The notes beneath the pieces were generated by a model. The model was not told the origin of the DNA. It searched no databases and was given only the letters and a program-made list of their open reading frames with translations. Shown piece by piece: positions 4,190 through 55,390 of a stretch of DNA of 64,000 nt. Origin of the DNA: Escherichia coli (GTDB lineage: Bacteria > Pseudomonadota > Gammaproteobacteria > Enterobacterales > Enterobacteriaceae); assembly GCF_024502345.1 (NCBI RefSeq), contig NZ_JALDNN010000001.1. One strand, given 5' to 3'. Every line of letters starts with the position of its first letter. Within the stretch, counting starts at the first letter, position 1. A program made the translations under genes and the position numbers.

Positions 4190-4948
4190 ATGGAAACACG
4201 TCGCGAAGAGCGTATCGGGCAGCTGCTGCAAGAATTAAAACGCAGCGATAAGTTACATCTTAAAGACGCCGCCGCCCTGCTTGGGGTTTCGGAGATGACG
4301 ATTCGTCGCGATCTGAACAACCACAGTGCGCCCGTCGTTTTGCTCGGCGGCTATATTGTTCTGGAACCGCGCAGTGCCAGCCATTACCTGTTAAGCGATC
4401 AAAAATCCCGCCTGGTGGAAGAAAAACGCCGGGCGGCAAAACTGGCTGCGACACTGGTAGAACCCGATCAGACTCTCTTTTTTGACTGTGGCACCACCAC
4501 GCCGTGGATTATTGAAGCGATTGATAATGAAATCCCTTTTACCGCCGTTTGTTATTCGCTAAATACCTTTCTGGCGCTGAAAGAGAAACCCCATTGCCGC
4601 GCATTTCTGTGCGGTGGTGAATTTCACGCCAGCAACGCCATTTTCAAACCCATCGATTTTCAGCAAACGTTGAATAATTTTTGCCCGGATATCGCTTTTT
4701 ATTCCGCGGCGGGCGTGCATGTCAGTAAAGGCGCTACCTGTTTTAATCTTGAAGAGTTGCCGGTAAAACACTGGGCCATGTCGATGGCGCAAAAGCATGT
4801 GCTGGTTGTCGACCACAGTAAATTTGGCAAGGTGCGTCCGGCGCGCATGGGTGACCTGAAACGCTTTGATATTGTGGTGAGTGATTGTTGCCCGGAAGAT
4901 GAGTATGTGAAGTACGCGCAGACGCACCGTATTAAGTTGATGTATTAA
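4190..4948 (+). CDS. deoR: DeoR transcriptional repressor of the deoxyribose operon
   Basis: 252-aa ORF with N-terminal HTH and DeoR-type C-terminal sugar-phosphate binding domain. Confidence 0.93.
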   Translation: METRREERIGQLLQELKRSDKLHLKDAAALLGVSEMTIRRDLNNHSAPVVLLGGYIVLEPRSASHYLLSDQKSRLVEEKRRAAKLAATLVEPDQTLFFDCGTTTPWIIEAIDNEIPFTAVCYSLNTFLALKEKPHCRAFLCGGEFHASNAIFKPIDFQQTLNNFCPDIAFYSAAGVHVSKGATCFNLEELPVKHWAMSMAQKHVLVVDHSKFGKVRPARMGDLKRFDIVVSDCCPEDEYVKYAQTHRIKLMY

Positions 4949-4953
4949 TGACG

Positions 4954-4985
4954 TATAACCGGATGACGTTTCGCGCCATCCGGTT
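4954..4985. terminator. stem-loop between convergent deoR and dacC
   Basis: inverted repeat ataaccggat...atccggttat. Confidence 0.45.
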
Positions 4986-4994
4986 ATCAGAAGA

Positions 4995-6197
4995 TTAAGA
5001 GAACCAGCTGCCGAACCACTGATGGAATTTCATCATCACGAAATCCCACATCCGACCAAAGAATCCGCCCTCTTCCACATTTTCCATCACGATCAGCGGA
5101 CGCTGCTCAATGGATTTACCGTTAAGCTGGAAATCAATGGTCCCGACAACCTGACCTTTTTTCAGCGGTGCGGTAAGCTGCGGTTCCGTTAACGTGTAGC
5201 TCGCCTTCAGGTTTTTCAGCTGCCCACGCGGTATGGTCACTGAGCCCGCTTCGCCTGCCCCGAGATTCACTTCGCTCTTATCACCAAACCAGACGCGCTG
5301 AGTCACAAAGGTGGCATCAGGTTTAATTGGCGTCACGGTTTCAAAGAAGCGGAAACCCCAGGTCAATAATTTCTCAGACTCATTAAAACGGATACGGTCA
5401 GTTTTCGCCCCCAGCACTACGGAGATTAAACGCATATCGCCCTGGGTAGCCGAAGCAACCAGATTATATCCCGCGCCTGCCGTGGTTCCTGTCTTCATGC
5501 CATCAACATTCAGATTGCTGCTCCACAGCAGACGGTTACGGTTAGGCTGACGAATTTTGTTGAAGGTGAACTCTTTCTCTTTATGAATGGCGTACTCTTC
5601 CGGCACATCGTGGATCAATGCTTTACCCAGCAATGCCATATCGCGCGCGGTACTGAACTGCCCCGGCGCATCCAGACCGTGCACCGTCTGGAAGGTAGTG
5701 TTGGTCAGACCCAGTTTTTTGGCATAACCATTCATCAAACCAATAAATGACTCCTGGCTCCCGGCAACGTAATCGGCCAGCGCAATACAGGCGTCATTAC
5801 CGGACTGGATAATCACACCTTTGTTCAAGTCTGCCACCGAAACCTGATCGCCCGGTTTGAGGAACATTACCGATGAACCACGCAGTGCCGGATTTCCCGT
5901 CGCCCAGGCATCTTTACCGACCGTCACCATATCGGTGAGTTTAATCTTATCGGCCTTAAGCGCCTGCCCAACCACATAGCTGGTCATGATTTTAGTCAGG
6001 CTCGCGGGATCCAGTTTCTCATCCGCGTTGCCTTCTGCCAGCACTTTACCGCTGGCGTAATCCATTAAAATCCATGCACGCGCATCCACGCTCGGCGCTT
6101 CAACGGTTTGTTCCGCCGCGAATGCCGTTGGGGCAAAAAGGAATAAAAATGCAGAACCCGCTGCAAGACCACGAAGGAGAGAGGAGTATTGCGTCAT
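4995..6197 (-). CDS. dacC: D-alanyl-D-alanine carboxypeptidase PBP6
   Basis: 400 aa from ATG at 6197 (track ORF extended by 7 codons); signal peptide, SLTK active-site motif, SGN and KTG motifs. Confidence 0.93.
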
Positions 6198-11589: not shown

Positions 11590-11907
11590 ACGTAAACTAC
11601 TCTTTTACTAATTTTCCACTTTTATCCCAGGCGGAGAATGGCATGGGTTTCTGGTACAGATACCCCCGAGCCTGAACACATCCTAATTTAATTAATTCGC
11701 GCGCAACGTCTTCGCTCTCTACGCCTTCCGCAATCACCGGGATCCGGTTATAGCGTGCCAGATCGAAAATAATGCGCACAATTTTTCCCGCAGTACCGAA
11801 AATATCGCCGGTAAATTGCGAGTCCACCTTTATGCTGTCTGGATTAATTTCATAAAAACGTTTCAGGTTTGACAAACCGGTGCCAAAGTCATCAATCGAT
11901 ATCCGTA

Positions 11908-11916: not shown

Positions 11917-11931
11917 GGTAATGACTCCAAC

Positions 11932-12435
11932 TTATTGATAGTGTTTTATGTTCAGATAATGCCCGATGACTTTGTCATGCAGCTCCACCGATTTTGAGAA
12001 CGACAGCGACTTCCGTCCCAGCCGTGCCAGGTGCTGCCTCAGATTCAGGTTATGCCGCTCAATTCGCTGCGTATATCGCTTGCTGATTACGTGCAGCTTT
12101 CCCTTCAGGCGGGATTCATACAGCGGCCAGCCATCCGTCATCCATATCACCACGTCAAAGGGTGACAGCAGGCTCATAAGACGCCCCAGCGTCGCCATAG
12201 TGCGTTCACCGAATACGTGCGCAACAACCGTCTTCCGGAGCCTGTCATACGCGTAAAACAGCCAGCGCTGGCGCGATTTAGCCCCGACGTATCCCCACTG
12301 TTCGTCCATTTCCGCGCAGACGATGACGTCACTGCCCGGCTGTATGCGCGAGGTTACCGACTGCGGCCTGAGTTTTTTAAATGGCGGAAAATCGTGTTGA
12401 GGCCAACGCCCATAATGCGGGCGGTTGCCCGGCAT
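11932..12435 (-). CDS. insB: IS1 InsB (transposase catalytic part, expressed as InsAB' by -1 frameshift)
   Basis: 167-aa ORF overlapping insA in the -1 frame. Confidence 0.88.
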
Positions 12436-12629
12436 CCAACGCCATTCATGGCCATATCAATGATTTTCTGGTGCGTACCGGGTTGAGAAGCGGTGTAAGT
12501 GAACTGCAGTTGCCATGTTTTACGGCAGTGAGAGCAGAGATAGCGCTGATGTCCGGCGGTGCTTTTGCCGTTACGCACCACCCCGTCAGTAGCTGAACAG
12601 GAGGGACAGCTGATAGAAACAGAAGCCAC
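12354..12629 (-). CDS. insA: IS1 InsA (transposition inhibitor, N-terminal part of InsAB' transposase)
   Basis: 91-aa ORF with zinc-finger (CPSC...CSHC) and HTH; A6C frameshift motif near its 3' end (12371-12380 on + strand). Confidence 0.9.
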
Positions 12630-12684
12630 TGGAGCACCTCAAAAACACCATCATACACTAAATCAGTAAGTTGGCAGCATCACC

Positions 12685-12693
12685 CCCCTTGTT
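12685..12693. repeat. IS1 target-site duplication, copy 2 (CCCCTTGTT)
   Basis: 9-bp sequence identical to 11908-11916. Confidence 0.9.
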
Positions 12694-14899
12694 TACGCAG
12701 TTGTTCAATATTGAGATAAAAATGTTCATTAATTCGCTCGATCACGGTTTCAGTGATCTCAACACAGAGGCTGTTCGCCTTCAGGCCATTTTCTTTCATG
12801 ATGGTGGTAAAACGCTCATGAAAGTGCGGTTCGTTTAACTGCCAGGGCGAAACATTAATATGCAGTAAGAAATCATCCTTCAGCGACGCACGCTGACTAA
12901 AATGTCTGAATTCACCCATTGCCGTTTTAATAATCTGATAACCCAGCTCAATGATAAACCCGATATCTTCAGCAATGGTAATGAACTTCAGCGGTGAAAT
13001 GATCCCCCGCTCCGCAGAAACCCAACGGCACAACGCCTCCGCGCCCAGAATGGCGCGGGTGTTAATATCAACGATCGGTTGATAGACGAGGAATAGTTCG
13101 CCAATTTCCATTGCATGGCGAATATTACGCGCAATCCAGATATTCTCTTCTATTTCATTGAGTTTCGCGTCATCACAGAAAATAAACTCGGAGAACATAT
13201 GGTCACGGATACTGGAAATCGCCAGTTTCAGTTTTTCTGCGTAACTCCAGGCGTTTTCCCCCTGCAAAGGTTCACAAATGGCAGACTTATGGATGCGCAG
13301 ATTGCGGTAGCCAAAGCTGCTGTCAAAATCGTTTACCATCGCTATTTTACGGGTAAATGTCTGTACATTTTCCCGACACAGAAGTAAATAGAGATCGGCA
13401 TTGAATGTCACGATATCGCAGCATTGCGCATATTTCTCGGCAATTCGCTGACACAATTTCCTGACGATTTTATTGCGTTCATCAACACCAAACACCGCTT
13501 CCACGGCTTCCAGACCACACAGTTTGATGATCCCCACAGCCAGATACTGATTATTGTTGGACTCAATAATCGCCATATTTTTAATAAAACCGCTTTCCTG
13601 ATCGTAAGAGATCAGTGAGAGCAATTTATTTGACCGTTCAATTTCGGCATCTTTCATTTCCGCGATCGAATTTTTGATGCTGATAATCTCTTTCGCATCG
13701 CCTTCGCGAATTTTCAGAGCCTCGATCTGATCCGTTGAGTCGGGCAAAAACGCCAGCGTATTAACCAGCTCGGTCATTTCAGAAAATTGCCGACGGAACA
13801 CACGAGTGGTCATGAAATATACCACCAGCAACACGATAATAATGAACGCAAACGGTAGATAAAAAAGTTTATCTGATGCGTTCAATAAATTACCGCCAGG
13901 ATAATAAAAATAGATTTCGAACAATGCATTATTTGGCACTGCTGATGTCTTTGCAATATACTCCGTATCGACAGAATCAATAATATTATAATTACCTTCG
14001 CTATTATAAATAATCAGTTTTTCACGAGCGAGTTGATTCTTGGCAATGATCTCATGACCTTGTTTCAAAAATAGAACTTCATCATTAGCGCTGATTTGAT
14101 CAAGATACTCGTTCAAATACCGCCAGTTTAAATCGACATGAATTTTATCTACCGCTAACAAATCGTGATCTTTGCCGTTGATACGTAGCGTAAAAGAGAT
14201 ACATTTTTTACCCGGACGATCAAAGCAATTGTATGCCGGATTCCAGCTGTTGTTAGAGTCATCTGAAGCCACCGACCACGGTCGTTTCGATGGGTTAAAA
14301 TCGGCAAAAATAACCCGCCCTGACTCGTCGACAAGCGGTCCATTTACTTGTTCCTGATGATAAACAACGATTTTATCATTCGCCCTCCGTGAAAAGAGAT
14401 AATATTTATTATCATCAAGTACCAGTCCCACCGAGTCTAAAAATGGCATCATTTCCATTTTCAGAATCACGGCGCGTTGAATCTCCTCTGTATTTTTTAA
14501 TAAATACAGTGAGTCCTTTAATGTCAGGGCCGAACGTTCAATATCTTTAAAGAAATAGCCAACGTTTTTCTGAATAAGTTCAAAGCGGCTATCGGCACGT
14601 TTTACCGCGCGTTCCGATACCAGTTGATAGTTAATGATGAAAAAAAGACCAATAAATGACAGTGCTGCCAATAAAAATAAAATTATCAGCCTTATCTTTA
14701 TCTTTTCGTATAAACTCAGCATGTTAATACATTTAACAAAATAACTATCTGAACGCTGTGCCGCTGCAAAAATAGTCCCTTGCTGCGGCTTTTTAACCAA
14801 ATTACCCGATTCTACAAAATCAGCAGAAAGTTACAACACTTGCTTAGGGCAATAATTTCCTGTGAGGTGATTACCCTTTCAAGCAATATTCAAACGTAA

Positions 14900-25197: not shown

Positions 25198-27630
25198 ATG
25201 ACCACACTGAAACTGGACACGCTCAGCGACCGCATTAAAGCGCACAAAAATGCGCTGGTGCATATTGTGAAACCGCCAGTCTGTACCGAGCGCGCGCAGC
25301 ACTATACCGAGATGTATCAACAACATCTCGATAAGCCGATCCCGGTACGTCGCGCGCTGGCACTGGCGCATCACCTGGCGAATCGCACCATCTGGATCAA
25401 ACACGATGAGTTGATCATTGGCAACCAGGCAAGCGAAGTTCGCGCCGCGCCGATCTTCCCGGAATATACTGTCTCGTGGATCGAAAAAGAGATTGATGAT
25501 CTGGCAGATCGTCCCGGTGCTGGCTTTGCGGTGAGCGAAGAGAACAAACGCGTTCTGCATGAAGTGTGCCCGTGGTGGCGCGGTCAGACCGTACAGGATC
25601 GCTGCTACGGCATGTTTACCGATGAGCAAAAAGGTCTGCTGGCGACCGGAATCATTAAAGCGGAAGGCAATATGACCTCCGGCGATGCGCACCTGGCGGT
25701 GAATTTCCCGCTGCTGCTGGAAAAAGGTCTTGATGGTCTGCGTGAGAAAGTAGCGGAACGTCGCTCGCGCATCAATCTGACGGTGCTGGAAGATTTACAT
25801 GGCGAACAATTCCTGAAAGCGATTGATATCGTGCTGGTGGCAGTCAGTGAACACATTGAACGTTTCGCTGCCCTGGCGCGTGAAATGGCTGCTACCGAAA
25901 CTCGCGAAAGCCGTCGCGATGAACTGCTGACGATGGCAGAAAACTGCGATCTTATCGCCCACCAGCCGCCGCAGACTTTCTGGCAGGCGCTGCAACTGTG
26001 TTACTTCATCCAATTGATTTTGCAGATCGAATCTAACGGTCACTCGGTATCGTTTGGTCGTATGGACCAGTATCTCTACCCGTACTATCGCCGCGACGTT
26101 GAACTCAACCAGACGCTGGATCGCGAACACGCCATCGAGATGCTGCATAGCTGCTGGCTGAAACTGCTGGAAGTGAACAAGATCCGCTCCGGCTCACACT
26201 CAAAAGCCTCTGCGGGAAGTCCGCTGTATCAGAACGTTACCATTGGCGGACAAAATCTGGTTGATGGTCAACCAATGGATGCAGTGAATCCCCTCTCTTA
26301 CGCGATCCTCGAATCCTGCGGTCGCCTGCGTTCCACTCAGCCTAACCTCAGCGTGCGTTACCATGCAGGAATGAGTAATGATTTCCTCGACGCCTGCGTA
26401 CAGGTGATCCGTTGCGGCTTCGGGATGCCGGCGTTCAACAACGACGAAATCGTGATCCCGGAATTTATTAAACTCGGTATTGAACCGCAGGACGCTTACG
26501 ACTACGCAGCGATTGGTTGTATCGAAACCGCCGTCGGTGGCAAATGGGGCTATCGCTGTACCGGCATGAGCTTTATCAACTTCGCCCGCGTGATGCTGGC
26601 GGCGCTGGAAGGCGGGCGTGATGCCACCAGCGGCAAAGTGTTCCTGCCACAAGAAAAAGCGTTGTCGGCAGGCAACTTTAACAATTTCGATGAAGTAATG
26701 GACGCGTGGGATACGCAAATCCGTTATTACACGCGTAAATCAATCGAAATCGAATATGTCGTCGACACCATGCTGGAAGAGAACGTACACGATATTCTCT
26801 GCTCGGCGCTGGTGGATGACTGTATTGAGCGAGCGAAAAGTATCAAGCAAGGCGGCGCGAAATATGACTGGGTTTCTGGCCTGCAGGTTGGCATTGCCAA
26901 CCTCGGCAACAGCCTGGCGGCAGTGAAGAAACTGGTATTTGAACAGGGCGCGATTGGTCAGCAACAGCTGGCTGCCGCACTGGCGGATGACTTCGATGGC
27001 CTGACTCATGAGCAACTGCGTCAGCGGCTGATTAACGGTGCGCCGAAGTACGGCAACGACGATGATACCGTCGATACGCTGCTGGCTCGCGCTTATCAGA
27101 CCTATATCGACGAACTGAAACAGTACCATAACCCGCGCTACGGTCGTGGTCCGGTTGGCGGCAACTATTACGCGGGTACCTCGTCTATCTCCGCTAACGT
27201 ACCGTTTGGCGCGCAAACTATGGCAACACCGGACGGGCGTAAAGCCCACACCCCGCTGGCAGAAGGCGCAAGCCCGGCCTCCGGTACTGACCATCTTGGC
27301 CCTACTGCGGTCATTGGCTCGGTGGGTAAACTGCCTACGGCAGCGATTCTCGGCGGCGTGTTGCTCAACCAGAAACTGAATCCGGCAACGCTGGAGAACG
27401 AATCTGACAAGCAGAAGCTGATGATCCTGCTGCGCACCTTCTTCGAGGTGCATAAAGGCTGGCATATTCAGTACAACATCGTTTCCCGCGAAACGCTGCT
27501 GGAGGCGAAAAAACATCCGGATCAGTACCGCGATCTGGTAGTGCGTGTCGCGGGTTATTCCGCCTTCTTCACCGCGCTCTCTCCAGACGCTCAGGACGAT
27601 ATCATCGCTCGTACTGAACATATGCTGTAA
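25198..27630 (+). CDS. ybiW: glycyl radical enzyme (pyruvate formate-lyase homolog) YbiW
   Basis: 810-aa ORF with C-terminal glycyl radical motif (RVAGYSA). Confidence 0.92.
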   Translation: MTTLKLDTLSDRIKAHKNALVHIVKPPVCTERAQHYTEMYQQHLDKPIPVRRALALAHHLANRTIWIKHDELIIGNQASEVRAAPIFPEYTVSWIEKEIDDLADRPGAGFAVSEENKRVLHEVCPWWRGQTVQDRCYGMFTDEQKGLLATGIIKAEGNMTSGDAHLAVNFPLLLEKGLDGLREKVAERRSRINLTVLEDLHGEQFLKAIDIVLVAVSEHIERFAALAREMAATETRESRRDELLTMAENCDLIAHQPPQTFWQALQLCYFIQLILQIESNGHSVSFGRMDQYLYPYYRRDVELNQTLDREHAIEMLHSCWLKLLEVNKIRSGSHSKASAGSPLYQNVTIGGQNLVDGQPMDAVNPLSYAILESCGRLRSTQPNLSVRYHAGMSNDFLDACVQVIRCGFGMPAFNNDEIVIPEFIKLGIEPQDAYDYAAIGCIETAVGGKWGYRCTGMSFINFARVMLAALEGGRDATSGKVFLPQEKALSAGNFNNFDEVMDAWDTQIRYYTRKSIEIEYVVDTMLEENVHDILCSALVDDCIERAKSIKQGGAKYDWVSGLQVGIANLGNSLAAVKKLVFEQGAIGQQQLAAALADDFDGLTHEQLRQRLINGAPKYGNDDDTVDTLLARAYQTYIDELKQYHNPRYGRGPVGGNYYAGTSSISANVPFGAQTMATPDGRKAHTPLAEGASPASGTDHLGPTAVIGSVGKLPTAAILGGVLLNQKLNPATLENESDKQKLMILLRTFFEVHKGWHIQYNIVSRETLLEAKKHPDQYRDLVVRVAGYSAFFTALSPDAQDDIIARTEHML

Positions 27631-27775
27631 TCTCTTCGGCCCGGCTGCGGCGTCGCCGGGCTAAATCATTCACATCATCAATTTCATCCTTACTTTCATT
27701 CGAAATATAATTTGTGCTCTGCGTCACATTGTTATTACACTGTTACGGTTTCATTTTCGAGCCAGGAGCACACCT

Positions 27776-28591
27776 ATGAGCGTAAAAGTTATCGTCACAG
27801 ACATGGACGGTACTTTTCTTAACGACGCCAAAACGTACAACCAACCACGTTTTATGGCGCAATATCAGGAACTGAAAAAGCGCGGCATTGAGTTCGTTGT
27901 CGCCAGCGGTAATCAGTATTACCAGCTTATTTCGTTCTTTCCTGAGCTAAAGGATGAGATCTCTTTTGTCGCGGAAAACGGCGCACTGGTTTACGAACAT
28001 GGCAAGCAACTGTTCCACGGCGAACTGACCCGACATGAATCGCGGATTGTTATTGGCGAGTTGCTAAAAGATAAGCAACTCAATTTTGTCGCCTGCGGTC
28101 TGCAAAGTGCATATGTCAGCGAAAATGCCCCCGAAGCATTTGTCGCACTGATGGCAAAACACTACCATCGCCTGAAAGCTGTAAAAGATTATCAGGAGAT
28201 TGACGACGTACTGTTCAAGTTTTCGCTCAACCTGCCAGATGAACAAATCCCGTTAGTGATCGACAAACTGCACATAGCGCTCGATGGCATTATGAAACCC
28301 GTCACCAGTGGTTTTGGCTTTATCGACCTGATTATTCCCGGTCTACATAAAGCAAACGGTATTTCGCGGTTACTGAAATGCTGGGATCTGTCACCGCAAA
28401 ATGTGGTAGCGATTGGCGACAGCGGTAACGATGCGGAGATGCTGAAAATGGCGCGTTATTCCTTTGCGATGGGCAATGCTGCGGAAAACATTAAACAAAT
28501 CGCCCGTTACGCTACCGATGATAATAATCATGAAGGCGCGCTGAATGTGATTCAGGCGGTGCTGGATAACACATCCCCTTTTAACAGCTGA
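27776..28591 (+). CDS. ybiV: HAD-superfamily sugar phosphatase YbiV
   Basis: 271-aa ORF, DMDGTF and GDSGND motifs; paralog of ybjI. Confidence 0.9.
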
Positions 28592-28598
28592 CCTCTCT

Positions 28599-28632
28599 AC
28601 CGGAGCCGTGCGCTCCGGTTTTCCCTTCTTTT
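28599..28632 (+). terminator. rho-independent terminator after ybiV
   Basis: accggagc...gctccggt hairpin followed by T-rich tract. Confidence 0.55.
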
Positions 28633-28736
28633 TACATCCTGTACATCACATCAAATCATTAAACTTGCATTAACTTATTTATAACTTATATTGTCACATG
28701 CAAATCAGAATGGTTTCGAATGAAAGTTAATGAGAG

Positions 28737-30008
28737 GTGGTTATAGCTTCTACTTTTACCAGCGACACATTGCCTGCCGATCACAAAGCAGCTATCCGTC
28801 AGATGAAGCACGCGCTGCGGGCGCAGCTTGGCGACGTCCAGCAGATCTTTAATCAGCTAAGCGATGACATTGCCACGCGAGTGGCTGAAATCAACGCACT
28901 CAAAGCACAGGGCGATGCCGTCTGGCCGGTGCTGTCTTATGCCGATATCAAAGCAGGTCATGTTACTGCAGAGCAGCGCGAACAGATTAAACGTCGCGGT
29001 TGTGCGGTGATAAAAGGCCATTTCCCCCGCGAACAAGCGCTAGGCTGGGATCAGTCGATGCTGGACTATCTGGACCGCAACCGCTTTGACGAGGTCTACA
29101 AAGGCCCCGGCGATAATTTCTTCGGGACGCTCAGCGCTTCACGTCCCGAGATTTACCCCATCTACTGGTCGCAGGCGCAAATGCAGGCCCGCCAGAGTGA
29201 AGAAATGGCGAATGCGCAGTCGTTTCTCAATCGTCTGTGGACATTTGAAAGTGATGGAAAGCAATGGTTTAACCCGGATGTGAGCGTCATCTACCCTGAC
29301 CGTATCCGCCGCCGTCCGCCCGGAACGACCTCCAAAGGTCTTGGAGCGCATACCGACTCCGGGGCGCTGGAACGCTGGCTGCTTCCAGCGTATCAGCGCG
29401 TTTTCGCCAACGTCTTTAATGGCAATCTGGCGCAATATGATCCCTAGCATGCGGCACATCGTACGGAAGTTGAAGAGTACACGGTGGACAACACCACCAA
29501 ATGTTCCGTGTTTCGGACATTCCAGGGCTGGACAGCGCTCTCTGATATGCTGCCTGGTCAGGGGTTGCTGCACGTTGTGCCCATTCCTGAAGCCATGGCG
29601 TACGTACTGTTACGTCCGCTGCTTGATGATGTGCCGGAGGATGAACTGTGCGGCGTAGCGCCCGGAAGAGTGTTGCCGGTATCAGAGCAATGGCATCCAC
29701 TGTTAATTGAGGCGTTAACCAGCATTCCAAAACTCGAGGCCGGAGACTCCGTCTGGTGGCACTGCGACGTCATCCATTCCGTTGCCCCCGTTGAAAATCA
29801 ACAGGGTTGGGGCAACGTGATGTACATTCCTGCGGCACCGATGTGCGAGAAAAATCTTGCCTACGCGCACAAGGTGAAGGCCGCACTGGAAAAAGGCGCA
29901 TCGCCGGGCGACTTCCCGCGCGAGGACTATGAAACAAACTGGGAAGGACGCTTTACGCTTGCCGACCTCAACATTCACGGTAAGCGAGCGTTGGGCATGG
30001 ATGTTTGA
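28737..30008 (+). pseudogene. ybiU: ybiU (DUF1479 protein) with an in-frame TAG at 29445-29447
   Basis: ORFs 28737-29447 and 29484-30008 are in the same frame with no other stop between them; together they give a ~423-codon product. Confidence 0.75.
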
Positions 30009-30061
30009 GAGTTAATGGAAGTGAATTGATGTGGGATTAAGAAAATCGATTCGACGTTACT

Positions 30062-30210
30062 CAGATTGCTGACAAGTGCGCTTTCTTAATGCCTGATGCG
30101 GCGTTAACGCCTTATCTGGCCTACAAAGTCCTGCAGATTCAATATATTACAGGTACTGCGTAGGCCTGATAAGCGTAGCGCATCAGGCTATTTTGCATTT
30201 GTCATCAGCC
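30062..30210. repeat. composite REP/BIME cluster, paralogous to 55240-55390
   Basis: REP palindromes gcctgatgcggcgttaacgccttatctggcctac and gtaggcctgataagcgtagcgcatcaggc with shared flanking blocks. Confidence 0.8.
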
Positions 30211-30211
30211 G

Positions 30212-30240
30212 CCGTCACCCCGACAGTATCGGGGTGACGG
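30212..30240 (-). terminator. stem-loop immediately downstream of ybiT
   Basis: cgtcaccccg...cggggtgacg perfect hairpin. Confidence 0.5.
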
Positions 30241-30248
30241 ATAATCAC

Positions 30249-31841
30249 TTACTCGATCCCTTTACTACGCAGGTAATCTTCGTAATTACCGCTAAAGTCG
30301 ATCACGCGTTCCGGGGTGATTTCCAGAATGCGGGTCGCCAGGGAGCTTACGAACTCACGGTCGTGTGAAACAAAGATCAGCGTGCCCTGATACAGTTCCA
30401 GCGCCATGTTCAGTGACTCGATGGATTCCATATCCAGGTGGTTGGTCGGTTCGTCCATGATCAGAATGTTCGGCTTCTGCATCATTAACTTACCAAACAG
30501 CATCCGCCCTTTTTCCCCACCGGAAAGCACTTTAGCTGGCTTTTTGATGTCGTCCTGGCTGAACAGCAAACGACCGAGAATGCTGCGTACCGCCTGCTCG
30601 TCATCGCCTTCCTGCTTCCACTGACTCATCCATTCGAACACGGTCAGATCATTTTCAAACTCATATTCGTGGTCCTGGGCGTAGTAACCAATGCGCGCGT
30701 TTTCAGACCATTTTACGGTGCCGCTGTCCGGTTGCAGATCGCCCACCAGCGTTTTCAGCAGCGTTGATTTACCGACGCCGTTGGTACCCAGTACCGCAAG
30801 TTTTTCACCGACCTCCAGCAGCAGGTTGAGATTTTTAAACAGTGGACCGTTATCAAACCCTTTGGTCAGACCTTCCACTTCCAGCGCGTTACGGAACAGT
30901 TTCTTATCCTGTTCAAAACGGATGAACGGGTTCTGACGGCTGGAGGCTTTCACCTCTTCCAGTTTGATTTTATCAATCTGGCGCGCGCGCGAAGTTGCCT
31001 GGCGAGATTTCGAGGCGTTGGCGCTAAAGCGGCTAACGAAAGATTGCAACTCAGCAATCTGCGCTTTCTTCTTGGCGTTATCGGCCAGCAGACGTTCACG
31101 CGCCTGGGTCGCCGCCGTCATGTACTCATCGTAGTTACCCGGATAAACGCGCAGCTCGCCGTAATCCAGATCCGCCATGTGGGTACAGACCATGTTAAGG
31201 AAGTGACGGTCGTGCGAGATGATGATCATGGTGCTGTCACGCTCGTTCAGCACCTGTTCCAGCCAGCGAATGGTGTCGATGTCGAGGTTGTTGGTCGGTT
31301 CGTCGAGCAGGAGAATATCCGGATCAGCAAACAGCGCCTGCGCCAGAAGCACACGCAGCTTCCAGCCAGGAGCAACTTCACTCATCGGGCCGTAGTGCTG
31401 TTCCACTGGAATTCCCACGCCAAGCAACAATTCACCGGCGCGAGCTTCCGCAGAGTAACCGTCCATTTCGCCGTATTTAACTTCCAGATCGGCCACTTTA
31501 TAGCCGTCTTCCTCACTCATTTCCGGCAAAGCATAGATGCGGTCACGCTCCTGCTTCACTTCCCACAACTCTTTATGCCCCATGATCACCGTATCCAGCA
31601 CAGTGAACTCTTCAAAGGCAAACTGATCCTGACGCAGCTTACCAATGCGCTCGTTGGGATCGAGGGAAACGTTACCCAAAGTCGGCTCTAAGTCGCCGCC
31701 GAGGATCTTCATAAAGGTGGATTTACCACTACCGTTCGCGCCAATCAGGCCGTAACGGTTGCCGCCGCCAAATTTGACGGAAATGTTTTCAAACAACGGC
31801 TTACTGCCGAACTGCATGGTGACGTTACTGGAAACTAACAC
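30249..31841 (-). CDS. ybiT: ABC-F family ATPase YbiT (two ABC domains, no membrane domain)
   Basis: 530-aa ORF with two Walker A motifs and two ABC signature motifs. Confidence 0.92.
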
Positions 31842-32059
31842 AGGCGTATCCTGAAAAGAGATATGACAAACCGCGCATTATGCCATAAGTCTGAAAGAAG
31901 ATCCTGCTCCTCGCTTAAGGTCTACACTCAAGCCAAAGGCAAAAAATGTGATTTCGTACACATCTGATTTCACTGTGAGCTGGAATGAACTTATAATGCG
32001 CTTCCAATACTCTAATATTCTCAACCCAATGGCCTGCCAGGCACAAAATCTCGCTTAAC

Positions 32060-55188: not shown

Positions 55189-55239
55189 CGTCTCGGTGGC
55201 TTATGGGCGGTAAAACAGATAAATTTTTTCCCGTGTTCT

Positions 55240-55390
<151 letters not shown>

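Follow-up and report, generated by a model that had tools for sequence, protein, structure and literature searches.

The ybiU locus of this Escherichia coli contig raises the question of whether a gene cut in two by a stop codon has been lost, is rescued during translation, or has simply been misread. In the window, by which we mean the whole stretch of 64,000 nucleotides that was analysed, the ORFs at 28737–29447 and 29484–30008 lie in one shared frame and are split by a single TAG at 29445–29447. This arrangement, proposed in the initial annotation from the letters alone, was confirmed from the sequence, and the peptides given on the two sides of the stop (AQYDP before it and HAAHRTEVEEY after it) are correct. 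Three explanations had been offered: a recent pseudogenization, a strain that relies on an amber suppressor, and a sequencing error. We are highly confident that ybiU is here a genuine, lineage-specific pseudogene, and that it has been inactivated by two independent G-to-A point lesions.

The reading frame runs from 28737 to the TGA at 30006–30008, and the TAG at 29445–29447 is its only internal stop. The reconstructed YbiU protein matched the Pfam profile PF07350 with an E-value of 2.4e−154 (residues 16–419, model positions 5–408 of 408) and was identical at 421/421 residues to PDB entry 2dbi, the crystallised YbiU of E. coli; because of these two results, a chance ORF pattern is ruled out, and the earlier assignment of the gene to ybiU (DUF1479) stands. 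Both remnant ORFs match PF07350 individually, and the gene order ybiW–ybiV–ybiU, with ybiT convergent, agrees with that of annotated E. coli genomes (PGAP records). The function of YbiU is not known (PMC6412132). The length of the gene had been given as ~423 codons from a GTG at 28737, but the actual gene has 421 codons from 28743, which is the start in PGAP and the first residue of 2dbi; because the gene starts there, the stop is numbered W235*. The Shine–Dalgarno-like sequence GAGAGGTGG would serve the start at 28743, and the GTG at 28737, which sits within GAGAGGTGG, would have no ribosome-binding site of its own. Judging from the DNA sequence, ybiU is its own transcription unit, separated from ybiV by a strong predicted intrinsic terminator; the promoter-like site upstream of ybiU is a consensus match that is no better than chance expectation. 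Because ybiU is monocistronic by this reading and ybiT is convergent, no polar effect on the neighbours would be expected. An Rfam search of both strands of 27500–32000 gave no match, and the antisense ORFs over the site (e.g., 29139–29573 on the minus strand) were rejected as unconserved by-products of the GC-rich coding region. The features of the locus are collected in Table 1.

Table 1. Coordinates of features at and around ybiU in the window, with the basis for each
Feature	Position	Strand	Basis or remark
ybiV	27776–28591	+	Upstream neighbour of ybiU
Putative ybiV intrinsic terminator	28599–28628	+	8-bp stem at 28599–28619 (6 G-C pairs) and a T-run after it
Promoter-like site upstream of ybiU (TTTACA, 17-nt spacer, AATCAT)	28631–28659	+	Consensus match only
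Shine–Dalgarno-like sequence GAGAGGTGG	28732–28740	+	Placed for the start at 28743; sequence read directly
N-terminal remnant ORF	28737–29447	+	Keeps His203-x-Asp205; ends before the conserved C-terminal half
ybiU pseudogene (DUF1479/Gig2-like; 421 codons if intact)	28743–30008	+	Synteny, PGAP CDS bounds, PF07350, 2dbi identity
Lost start codon, ATA for ATG (G to A at 28745)	28743–28745	+	Comparison with intact allele
Former Dcm site, CCTGG in intact alleles, CCTAG here	29443–29447		Mutated base pairs with the methylated inner C of the minus strand
Premature amber stop W235*, TGG to TAG (G to A at 29446)	29445–29447	+	Comparison with intact alleles; PGAP "internal stop" in four RefSeq genomes
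C-terminal remnant ORF, 174 aa from GTG	29484–30008	+	Holds the FRTFQGWTALS and WHCDxxHxV blocks
ybiT	30249–31841	−	Convergent neighbour of ybiU

Compared with the nearest intact allele, that of strain 120899, the ybiU of the window has two differences only, at 28745 and 29446, and both are G to A. Position 28745 is the third base of the start codon, as the PGAP CDS starts at 28743 and the crystallised protein begins with MASTF. In other words, the gene that had been described as otherwise continuous carries a second, overlooked lesion, an ATA in place of its initiating ATG. As for the stop, the proposed TGG-to-TAG origin was borne out: the nearest intact allele has G at 29446, and a 61-mer centred on the TAG was found exactly in 4 of 4,085 complete E. 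coli genomes with ybiU, the remainder being one base off. TGG is the ancestral codon, present in ~4,080 of these 4,085 genomes (about 99.9%), and orthologues that end naturally at the position of the TAG did not occur. The tryptophan at position 235 is kept in Salmonella, and the residue is aromatic (Trp or Phe) in all solved homologues; codon 235 was also found as TGA in one allele (L017). A 61-mer centred on the ATA was exact in 5 of 4,001 complete genomes, with ATG in ~3,995 of the 4,001; the TAG is present in none of these five ATA-bearing genomes, and one of them, PC6, is also frameshifted. The four exact TAG matches (PI24, MB07011, UCPROB-001, and UCPROB-002) share with the window the identical TGG-to-TAG change at codon 235 and the same synteny, but they keep the ATG and have other ybiU haplotypes, 2–12 sites from that of the window. 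PGAP marks ybiU in these four genomes as pseudo, with the remark "internal stop", and in the five ATA genomes it gives a normal CDS from the ATA, under a protein accession shared with ATG strains.

The truncation at W235 costs 187 of 421 residues (44%) and leaves 234. The conserved His203-x-Asp205 (aligned with Salmonella 2csg, 4rgk, and Candida Gig2 6akz) lies upstream of the stop, and the two most conserved blocks, FRTFQGWTALS (residues 257–267) and WHCDxxHxV (containing His340 and His345), lie downstream of it. The DUF1479/Gig2 family is classed as cupin-type and, judging from these residues, appears to have a His-x-Asp...His metal site, and the truncated fragment would keep only half of it. 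Reconstructed YbiU is a full-length member of this family (PF07350; 2dbi and 2dbn, E. coli YbiU; 2csg, Salmonella; 4rgk/7twc/7twe; 6akz, Candida Gig2); unlike these members, the gene in the window cannot give a full-length protein. An uninterrupted frame with a canonical start is absent (ATA start, TAG at codon 235), which makes it a pseudogene of the family, not a functional member. Initiation at AUA amounts to ~1–2% of that at AUG in E. coli reporters (bioRxiv 10.1101/063800). Translation of ybiU would now start at roughly 1–2% of the normal level, any product would end after 234 residues without the C-terminal 187 and most conserved blocks, and no functional YbiU would be made. Residual expression, from the ATA start and by readthrough, is not zero. 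The C-terminal remnant ORF is unlikely to be translated on its own; its 174-aa product has been emitted by gene callers on 343 contigs.

A probable order can be given for the two lesions. Over 3.7 kb, the metagenome scaffolds L016 and L021 match the window at every base except 28745, where they have G and hence an ATG start; they share both the TAG and the lineage marker 28379T. Because these closest relatives have the TAG with the ATG, the stop probably predates the start loss. A caveat is that the TAG was seen with all four combinations of the ybiV-3′ haplotype and ATG or ATA (L013, L016, L025, and the window). Recombination therefore shuffles this stretch, and it could have brought in the ATA from the ATA-only clade, in which case no new mutation was needed. 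The inactivation is young, as the ORF is otherwise undecayed. Of the "recent pseudogenization" suggested earlier, the pseudogene holds; "recent" is true of the ORF, which has hardly begun to decay, but not of the stop allele itself, which is widespread and occurs on several backgrounds.

The selective history of the gene was examined through its polymorphisms. The shared, haplotype-defining polymorphisms of ybiU comprise 12 synonymous changes and 1 nonsynonymous change, whereas the private changes on broken alleles comprise 2 synonymous and 6 nonsynonymous changes (75% nonsynonymous, where neutrality would predict 76% for ybiU); examples of the latter are F176I (L003) and G274E and P349L (L018). 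The contrast between shared and private changes gave a Fisher p of 0.003 from small numbers, and it is somewhat overstated, as singletons are enriched for nonsynonymous changes even in functional genes. A first contrast, between intact and broken alleles, was uninformative with one intact haplotype only, and was redone in the shared-versus-private form. Because ~99.9% of the complete genomes with ybiU keep TGG and the old polymorphisms are 12 synonymous to 1 nonsynonymous, ybiU is, as far as these patterns tell, normally under purifying selection. The gene is also dispensable in E. coli. No megablast match to ybiU was obtained in 1,118 of 5,426 complete genomes (~21%), and the surrounding 25 kb was found in 5,425; all 14 of the other N-terminal truncation (nonsense) products that were looked up are present in public assemblies or in the protein collection, and 102 contigs carry the 401-aa product that start loss alone would be expected to give. 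Because ybiU is dispensable, its loss is tolerated. The loss was probably neutral, and the start loss would have followed the stop under relaxed selection.

The TAG falls within a former Dcm site. By enumeration, intact ybiU has three Dcm sites (CCWGG) and thus six methyl-C targets. Single-base changes could create a stop in ybiU in 148 ways, of which 51 are transitions, and only 2 of the 51, W235* at 29446 and Q261* at 29523, fall on a methyl-C; the W235* change observed is a C to T at the minus-strand inner cytosine of CCTGG. Synthetic k-mers representing changes at Dcm sites and at unmethylated controls were compared against roughly 4,080 complete genomes (Table 2). The minus-strand methyl-C targets were all polymorphic G to A (3/3). 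Neither of the two plus-strand methyl-C targets was variant among the ~4,080 genomes, the predicted Q261* and the 29444 C-to-T change both being absent, and the same was true of the two unmethylated nonsense controls (0/2 in ~4,080 complete genomes). The unmethylated synonymous change at 29537 equalled the Dcm variant at 29525 in frequency (3 records from 2 strains vs 3).

Table 2. Occurrence of ybiU variants at Dcm sites and at control positions among roughly 4,080 complete genomes
Variant	Effect	Class	Occurrence
29446 G>A	W235 amber	Dcm, minus strand	4 genomes
29525 G>A	Synonymous	Dcm, minus strand	3 genomes
29556 G>A	G272S	Dcm, minus strand	299 genomes (includes O157:H7)
29523 C>T	Q261 amber	Dcm, plus strand	0 genomes
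29444 C>T	Synonymous (P234)	Dcm, plus strand	0 genomes
29447 G>A	W235 opal	Unmethylated nonsense control	0 genomes
29530 G>A	W263 amber	Unmethylated nonsense control	0 genomes
29537 G>A	Synonymous	Unmethylated neutral control	3 records from 2 strains

Across the collection as a whole, W235* was the commonest ybiU truncation (170 contigs and 273 index blocks), and all 14 of the places examined were true internal stops. It occurred on 8 backgrounds defined over the ybiV and ybiU haplotypes, against 2–3 for the control nonsense alleles, but backgrounds defined in this way overcount origins, as recombination shuffles the flanks (L022, L025, and L013). Within the gene, W235* was found on three combinations of the markers 29366 and 29565, a pattern that would call for at least 2–3 separate origins or, failing that, for conversion tracts of less than 200 bp. 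Control nonsense alleles recur as well: W142* (as TAG and as TGA) on 3 backgrounds, Q273* on 2, and Q151* on 2. Raw contig counts were discarded as a measure of a hotspot: Q151* was counted on 149 contigs and W235* on 170, but 8 of 10 Q151* places were contig ends at codon 150, and such counts are confounded by assembly breaks and clonal expansion. The wild-type 99-mer was likewise discarded as a control for all positions, as ~550 genomes differ from it through inherited lineage polymorphisms and end-trimming by BLAST blurs the exact-match band.

The difference between the strands is consistent with replication. The plus-strand GC skew of the window is −0.031, so the minus strand is the lagging-strand template. 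G:C transitions are ~2-fold commoner when the C is on the lagging-strand template (PMC8510543), and PMC10710837 credits Bhagwat et al. 2016 with the same bias. The replication-strand argument was brought in after the strand asymmetry had been seen and carries lower weight for this reason. According to the description in PMC9520237 of Cherry 2018 (J Bacteriol), Dcm-site hypermutation occurs in natural E. coli and Salmonella populations, and C-to-T changes are ~8-fold higher at the Dcm inner cytosine. In the mechanism that we propose, the methylated inner cytosine on the minus strand of the ancestral CCTGG would have been deaminated to thymine and have escaped very-short-patch repair. As a lagging-strand template, the minus strand would deaminate more, and Dcm deamination would account for the rank of W235* as the most frequent and most recurrent nonsense allele of ybiU. 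In lacI, amber hotspots were reportedly located at Dcm sites (CCWGG) by Coulondre, Miller and colleagues in 1978. The ybiU change resembles Dcm hotspots in that it lies at the partner of the methylated inner C of CCWGG, creates a TAG, and recurs on several backgrounds. Unlike the lacI Dcm ambers, which come from CAG, the ybiU stop comes from TGG through the opposite strand, and its apparent excess over the unmethylated controls is modest. Since the controls discriminate only in part, a Dcm-deamination origin of W235* is plausible rather than demonstrated, and we put its chances at about even.

Recurrence could also be a sign of selection, if W235*, the other knock-outs, and the start losses were favoured in some niches. 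W235* lies on at least three within-gene haplotype backgrounds, the nonsense and start-loss products looked up are all on record, ybiU goes undetected in about a fifth of the complete genomes, and many of the isolates come from the animal and human gut. However, in a collection as large as this SRA-wide one, any neutral knock-out of a dispensable gene should turn up, the retention of TGG and the excess of synonymous changes among the old polymorphisms point the other way, no knock-out allele has swept, and the exact Dcm context gives a mutational explanation for the excess at W235. We therefore regard positive selection for the loss of YbiU as unlikely. The more specific proposal that ybiU inactivation, outright absence of the gene included, is a parallel adaptive loss of a 2-oxoglutarate-oxygenase-like enzyme in some gut or animal lineages, with the Dcm site merely the easiest route to it, seems to us improbable.

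An amber suppressor tRNA of the supE/glnV type, or efficient readthrough, might keep full-length YbiU in production, and the frame downstream of the TAG is indeed still open. Several observations speak against this possibility, which the initial annotation had raised. No tRNA gene was found within the 64-kb window. The start ATG has also been lost in the lineage, which selection on a working gene would oppose, and the private changes on broken alleles are close to neutral in composition, with G274E and P349L of L018 lying downstream of the stop. Conservation of the TAG is lacking, as among complete genomes only 4 of 4,085 have it, and codon 235 also occurs as TGA. A supE suppressor inserts Gln, unlike the aromatic residue found at position 235 in all solved homologues. 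Furthermore, the strain belongs to a natural isolate lineage and not to K-12, with its nearest complete genome 99.7% identical over 25 kb. Dependence on suppression is very unlikely given the lost start codon and the neutral pattern of change.

A sequencing or assembly error at the TAG, the ATA, or both, with the gene intact, was conceivable in that each lesion is a single-base change and no complete RefSeq genome has a ybiU 100% identical to that of the window. Yet the ATA and the TAG occur together in six independent datasets (ENA, NCBI, and four Logan SRA assemblies), and because both lesions recur together in this way, sequencing error is excluded for practical purposes and the earlier suggestion of it is refuted. 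The NCBI assembly among them, GCA_050022275.1 (L023), has one SNP against the window in 20,645 bp (20,644/20,645 identical); by coordinates, the first base of its contig corresponds to window position 12611, 74 bases inside the IS1 copy of the window, and a contig break inside IS1 would look like a short-read assembly of the same clone. Over the length of ybiU, three of the Logan SRA assemblies show no difference from the window. A 214-aa product, running from Met21 to the W235 stop and called when the first ATG is gone, is on record, and all 6 contigs retrieved for it have both the ATA and the TAG; the 236-aa product that starts from the GTG in the window is not on record in the public protein collection. 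The TAG alone, moreover, is spread over the 273 blocks, with true internal stops at every place examined.

Equally remote is a split gene whose halves are translated separately and reassembled as a two-chain enzyme, for although both remnants match PF07350 and an in-frame GTG follows the stop at 29484, the N-terminal half has no start codon, only a weak GAAGAG precedes the GTG, 12 residues (235–246) would be missing, the split would part His203-x-Asp205 from His340/His345 inside one domain, and the arrangement is rare and conserved in no lineage other than as a fresh mutation. Nor is there any appreciable chance that the strain was chemically mutagenised (EMS or nitrosoguanidine) or cytosine base-edited: both lesions are inactivating G:C-to-A:T transitions, and the combination of start silencing with TGG-to-TAG is a known knock-out design, but the substitution spectrum against the nearest genome is balanced over 49.8 kb (A>G 31, T>C 29, G>A 25, and C>T 22), the alleles occur in gut metagenomes and unrelated isolates, and TAG-only intermediates exist in nature. 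Among the 43 genes compared, ybiU is the only one with a start change or an internal stop; 41 of the 43 are intact, and the other disruption is an IS1 in pdeI. By these 43 genes and this spectrum, the genome of the strain is neither decaying nor mutagenised.

The ybiU of the window is an ordinary pseudogene: its family is known, so is the type of mutation behind it, and the identical stop is already flagged in four RefSeq genomes. What our analysis adds is the overlooked start loss, the evidence for the stop as the older of the two lesions, and the finding that PGAP does not flag alleles with an ATA start. In pipelines for which ATA is a valid table-11 initiator, the start-loss allele appears as an intact gene under the normal accession, so that annotation misses a probable drop in expression of roughly 50- to 100-fold.

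Dispensable genes decay stepwise into pseudogenes in Shigella and in host-restricted Salmonella. The present case is similar in that ybiU would have received a first hit and then further lesions under relaxed selection, and an IS1 is found in pdeI as well; it differs in that there is no sign of genome-wide decay, with nearly all of the genes checked in the window intact. The biological weight of the finding is small: one E. coli lineage has had a dispensable gene of unknown function knocked out. Nevertheless, ybiU offers a natural case of stepwise decay whose intermediates are still circulating, and, given a proper homoplasy analysis, W235* might be used to test for Dcm-driven, strand-biased hypermutation in natural populations.

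Of 5,426 complete Escherichia coli genomes, 1,118 had no match to ybiU by megablast, and the flanking 25 kb was present in 5,425. In a further 219 complete genomes, the gene was matched at 60–80% identity only, and these matches may come from a paralogue or from a divergent copy of the gene. Plasmids carried five of the matches in the set. Among the other point alleles of ybiU, G272S results from a G-to-A change at window position 29556, where the third Dcm site of ybiU has its methyl-C target on the minus strand. This allele is fixed throughout a large lineage, O157:H7 included (approximately 299 complete genomes at the equivalent position). An independent opal allele of codon 235, TGG to TGA at the equivalent of position 29447, occurred in GCA_002512215.1 and yields the same 234-aa product as the W235* amber allele; no opal TGA was found at this codon in the complete-genome set.

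Many unrelated assemblies had contigs ending at an identical base inside ybiU, at the equivalent of window positions 29193–29194 (codons 150–151) in loci L030–L037 and of position 29167 (codon 142) in L045–L047. These coincident ends suggest that a repeat or an insertion sequence (IS) recurrently inserts at these points or that assemblies systematically break there, and they inflate the counts of seemingly truncated proteins. The REP-rich spacer between ybiU and the convergent ybiT holds an insertion of the IS110-family element IS621 in many strains, and none was present in the spacer of the window. Nearly all of the examined alleles with Q273*, one of the control nonsense changes in ybiU, were linked to this insertion, suggesting that they represent a single clone. 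The REP/BIME-type repeat 3′ of ybiU (approximately 30055–30210) has a second copy, approximately 84% identical, about 25 kb away (approximately 55235–55390). This block differs in length among otherwise identical relatives; positions 30098–30163 are missing from L024 and positions 30076–30163 from L013.

Insertion sequences and the interrupted pdeI gene
Feature	Position	Strand	Remark
IS1	11917–12684		768 bp; insA + insB
insA of IS1	12354–12629	−	
insB of IS1	11932–12435	−	
pdeI (yliE) fragments	12680–14800 and 11597–11875	both −	
IS621	L001 (strain 120899) 4528–5508; L003 3849–4829; L048–L053		equivalent to window 30009–30248

The second inactivated gene in the window is the c-di-GMP phosphodiesterase gene pdeI, which is split by IS1 with a 9-bp target-site duplication. 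The same insertion appears to be common to the window and GCA_050022275.1, the assembly that also carries both ybiU lesions, in which a contig begins within the IS1 of pdeI. Relative to the nearest complete genome, the window has an in-frame 3-bp deletion in hcxB (approximately 50391) and a 1-bp insertion in the mcbA–fiu spacer (approximately 46108).

An ATA start, at the equivalent of window positions 28743–28745, was also present in the ybiU alleles of strains CFS3292, BUCT2930, LZYWN_4, and SX12 (L006, L008, L009, and L010), and 102 contigs had a 401-aa product, as expected from such an allele. PGAP gave the ATA-start alleles the standard protein accession and an ordinary intact-gene label because ATA is a listed initiator in table 11. 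An ATA start probably causes a strong loss of ybiU expression, and this probable loss therefore carries no flag in the annotation.
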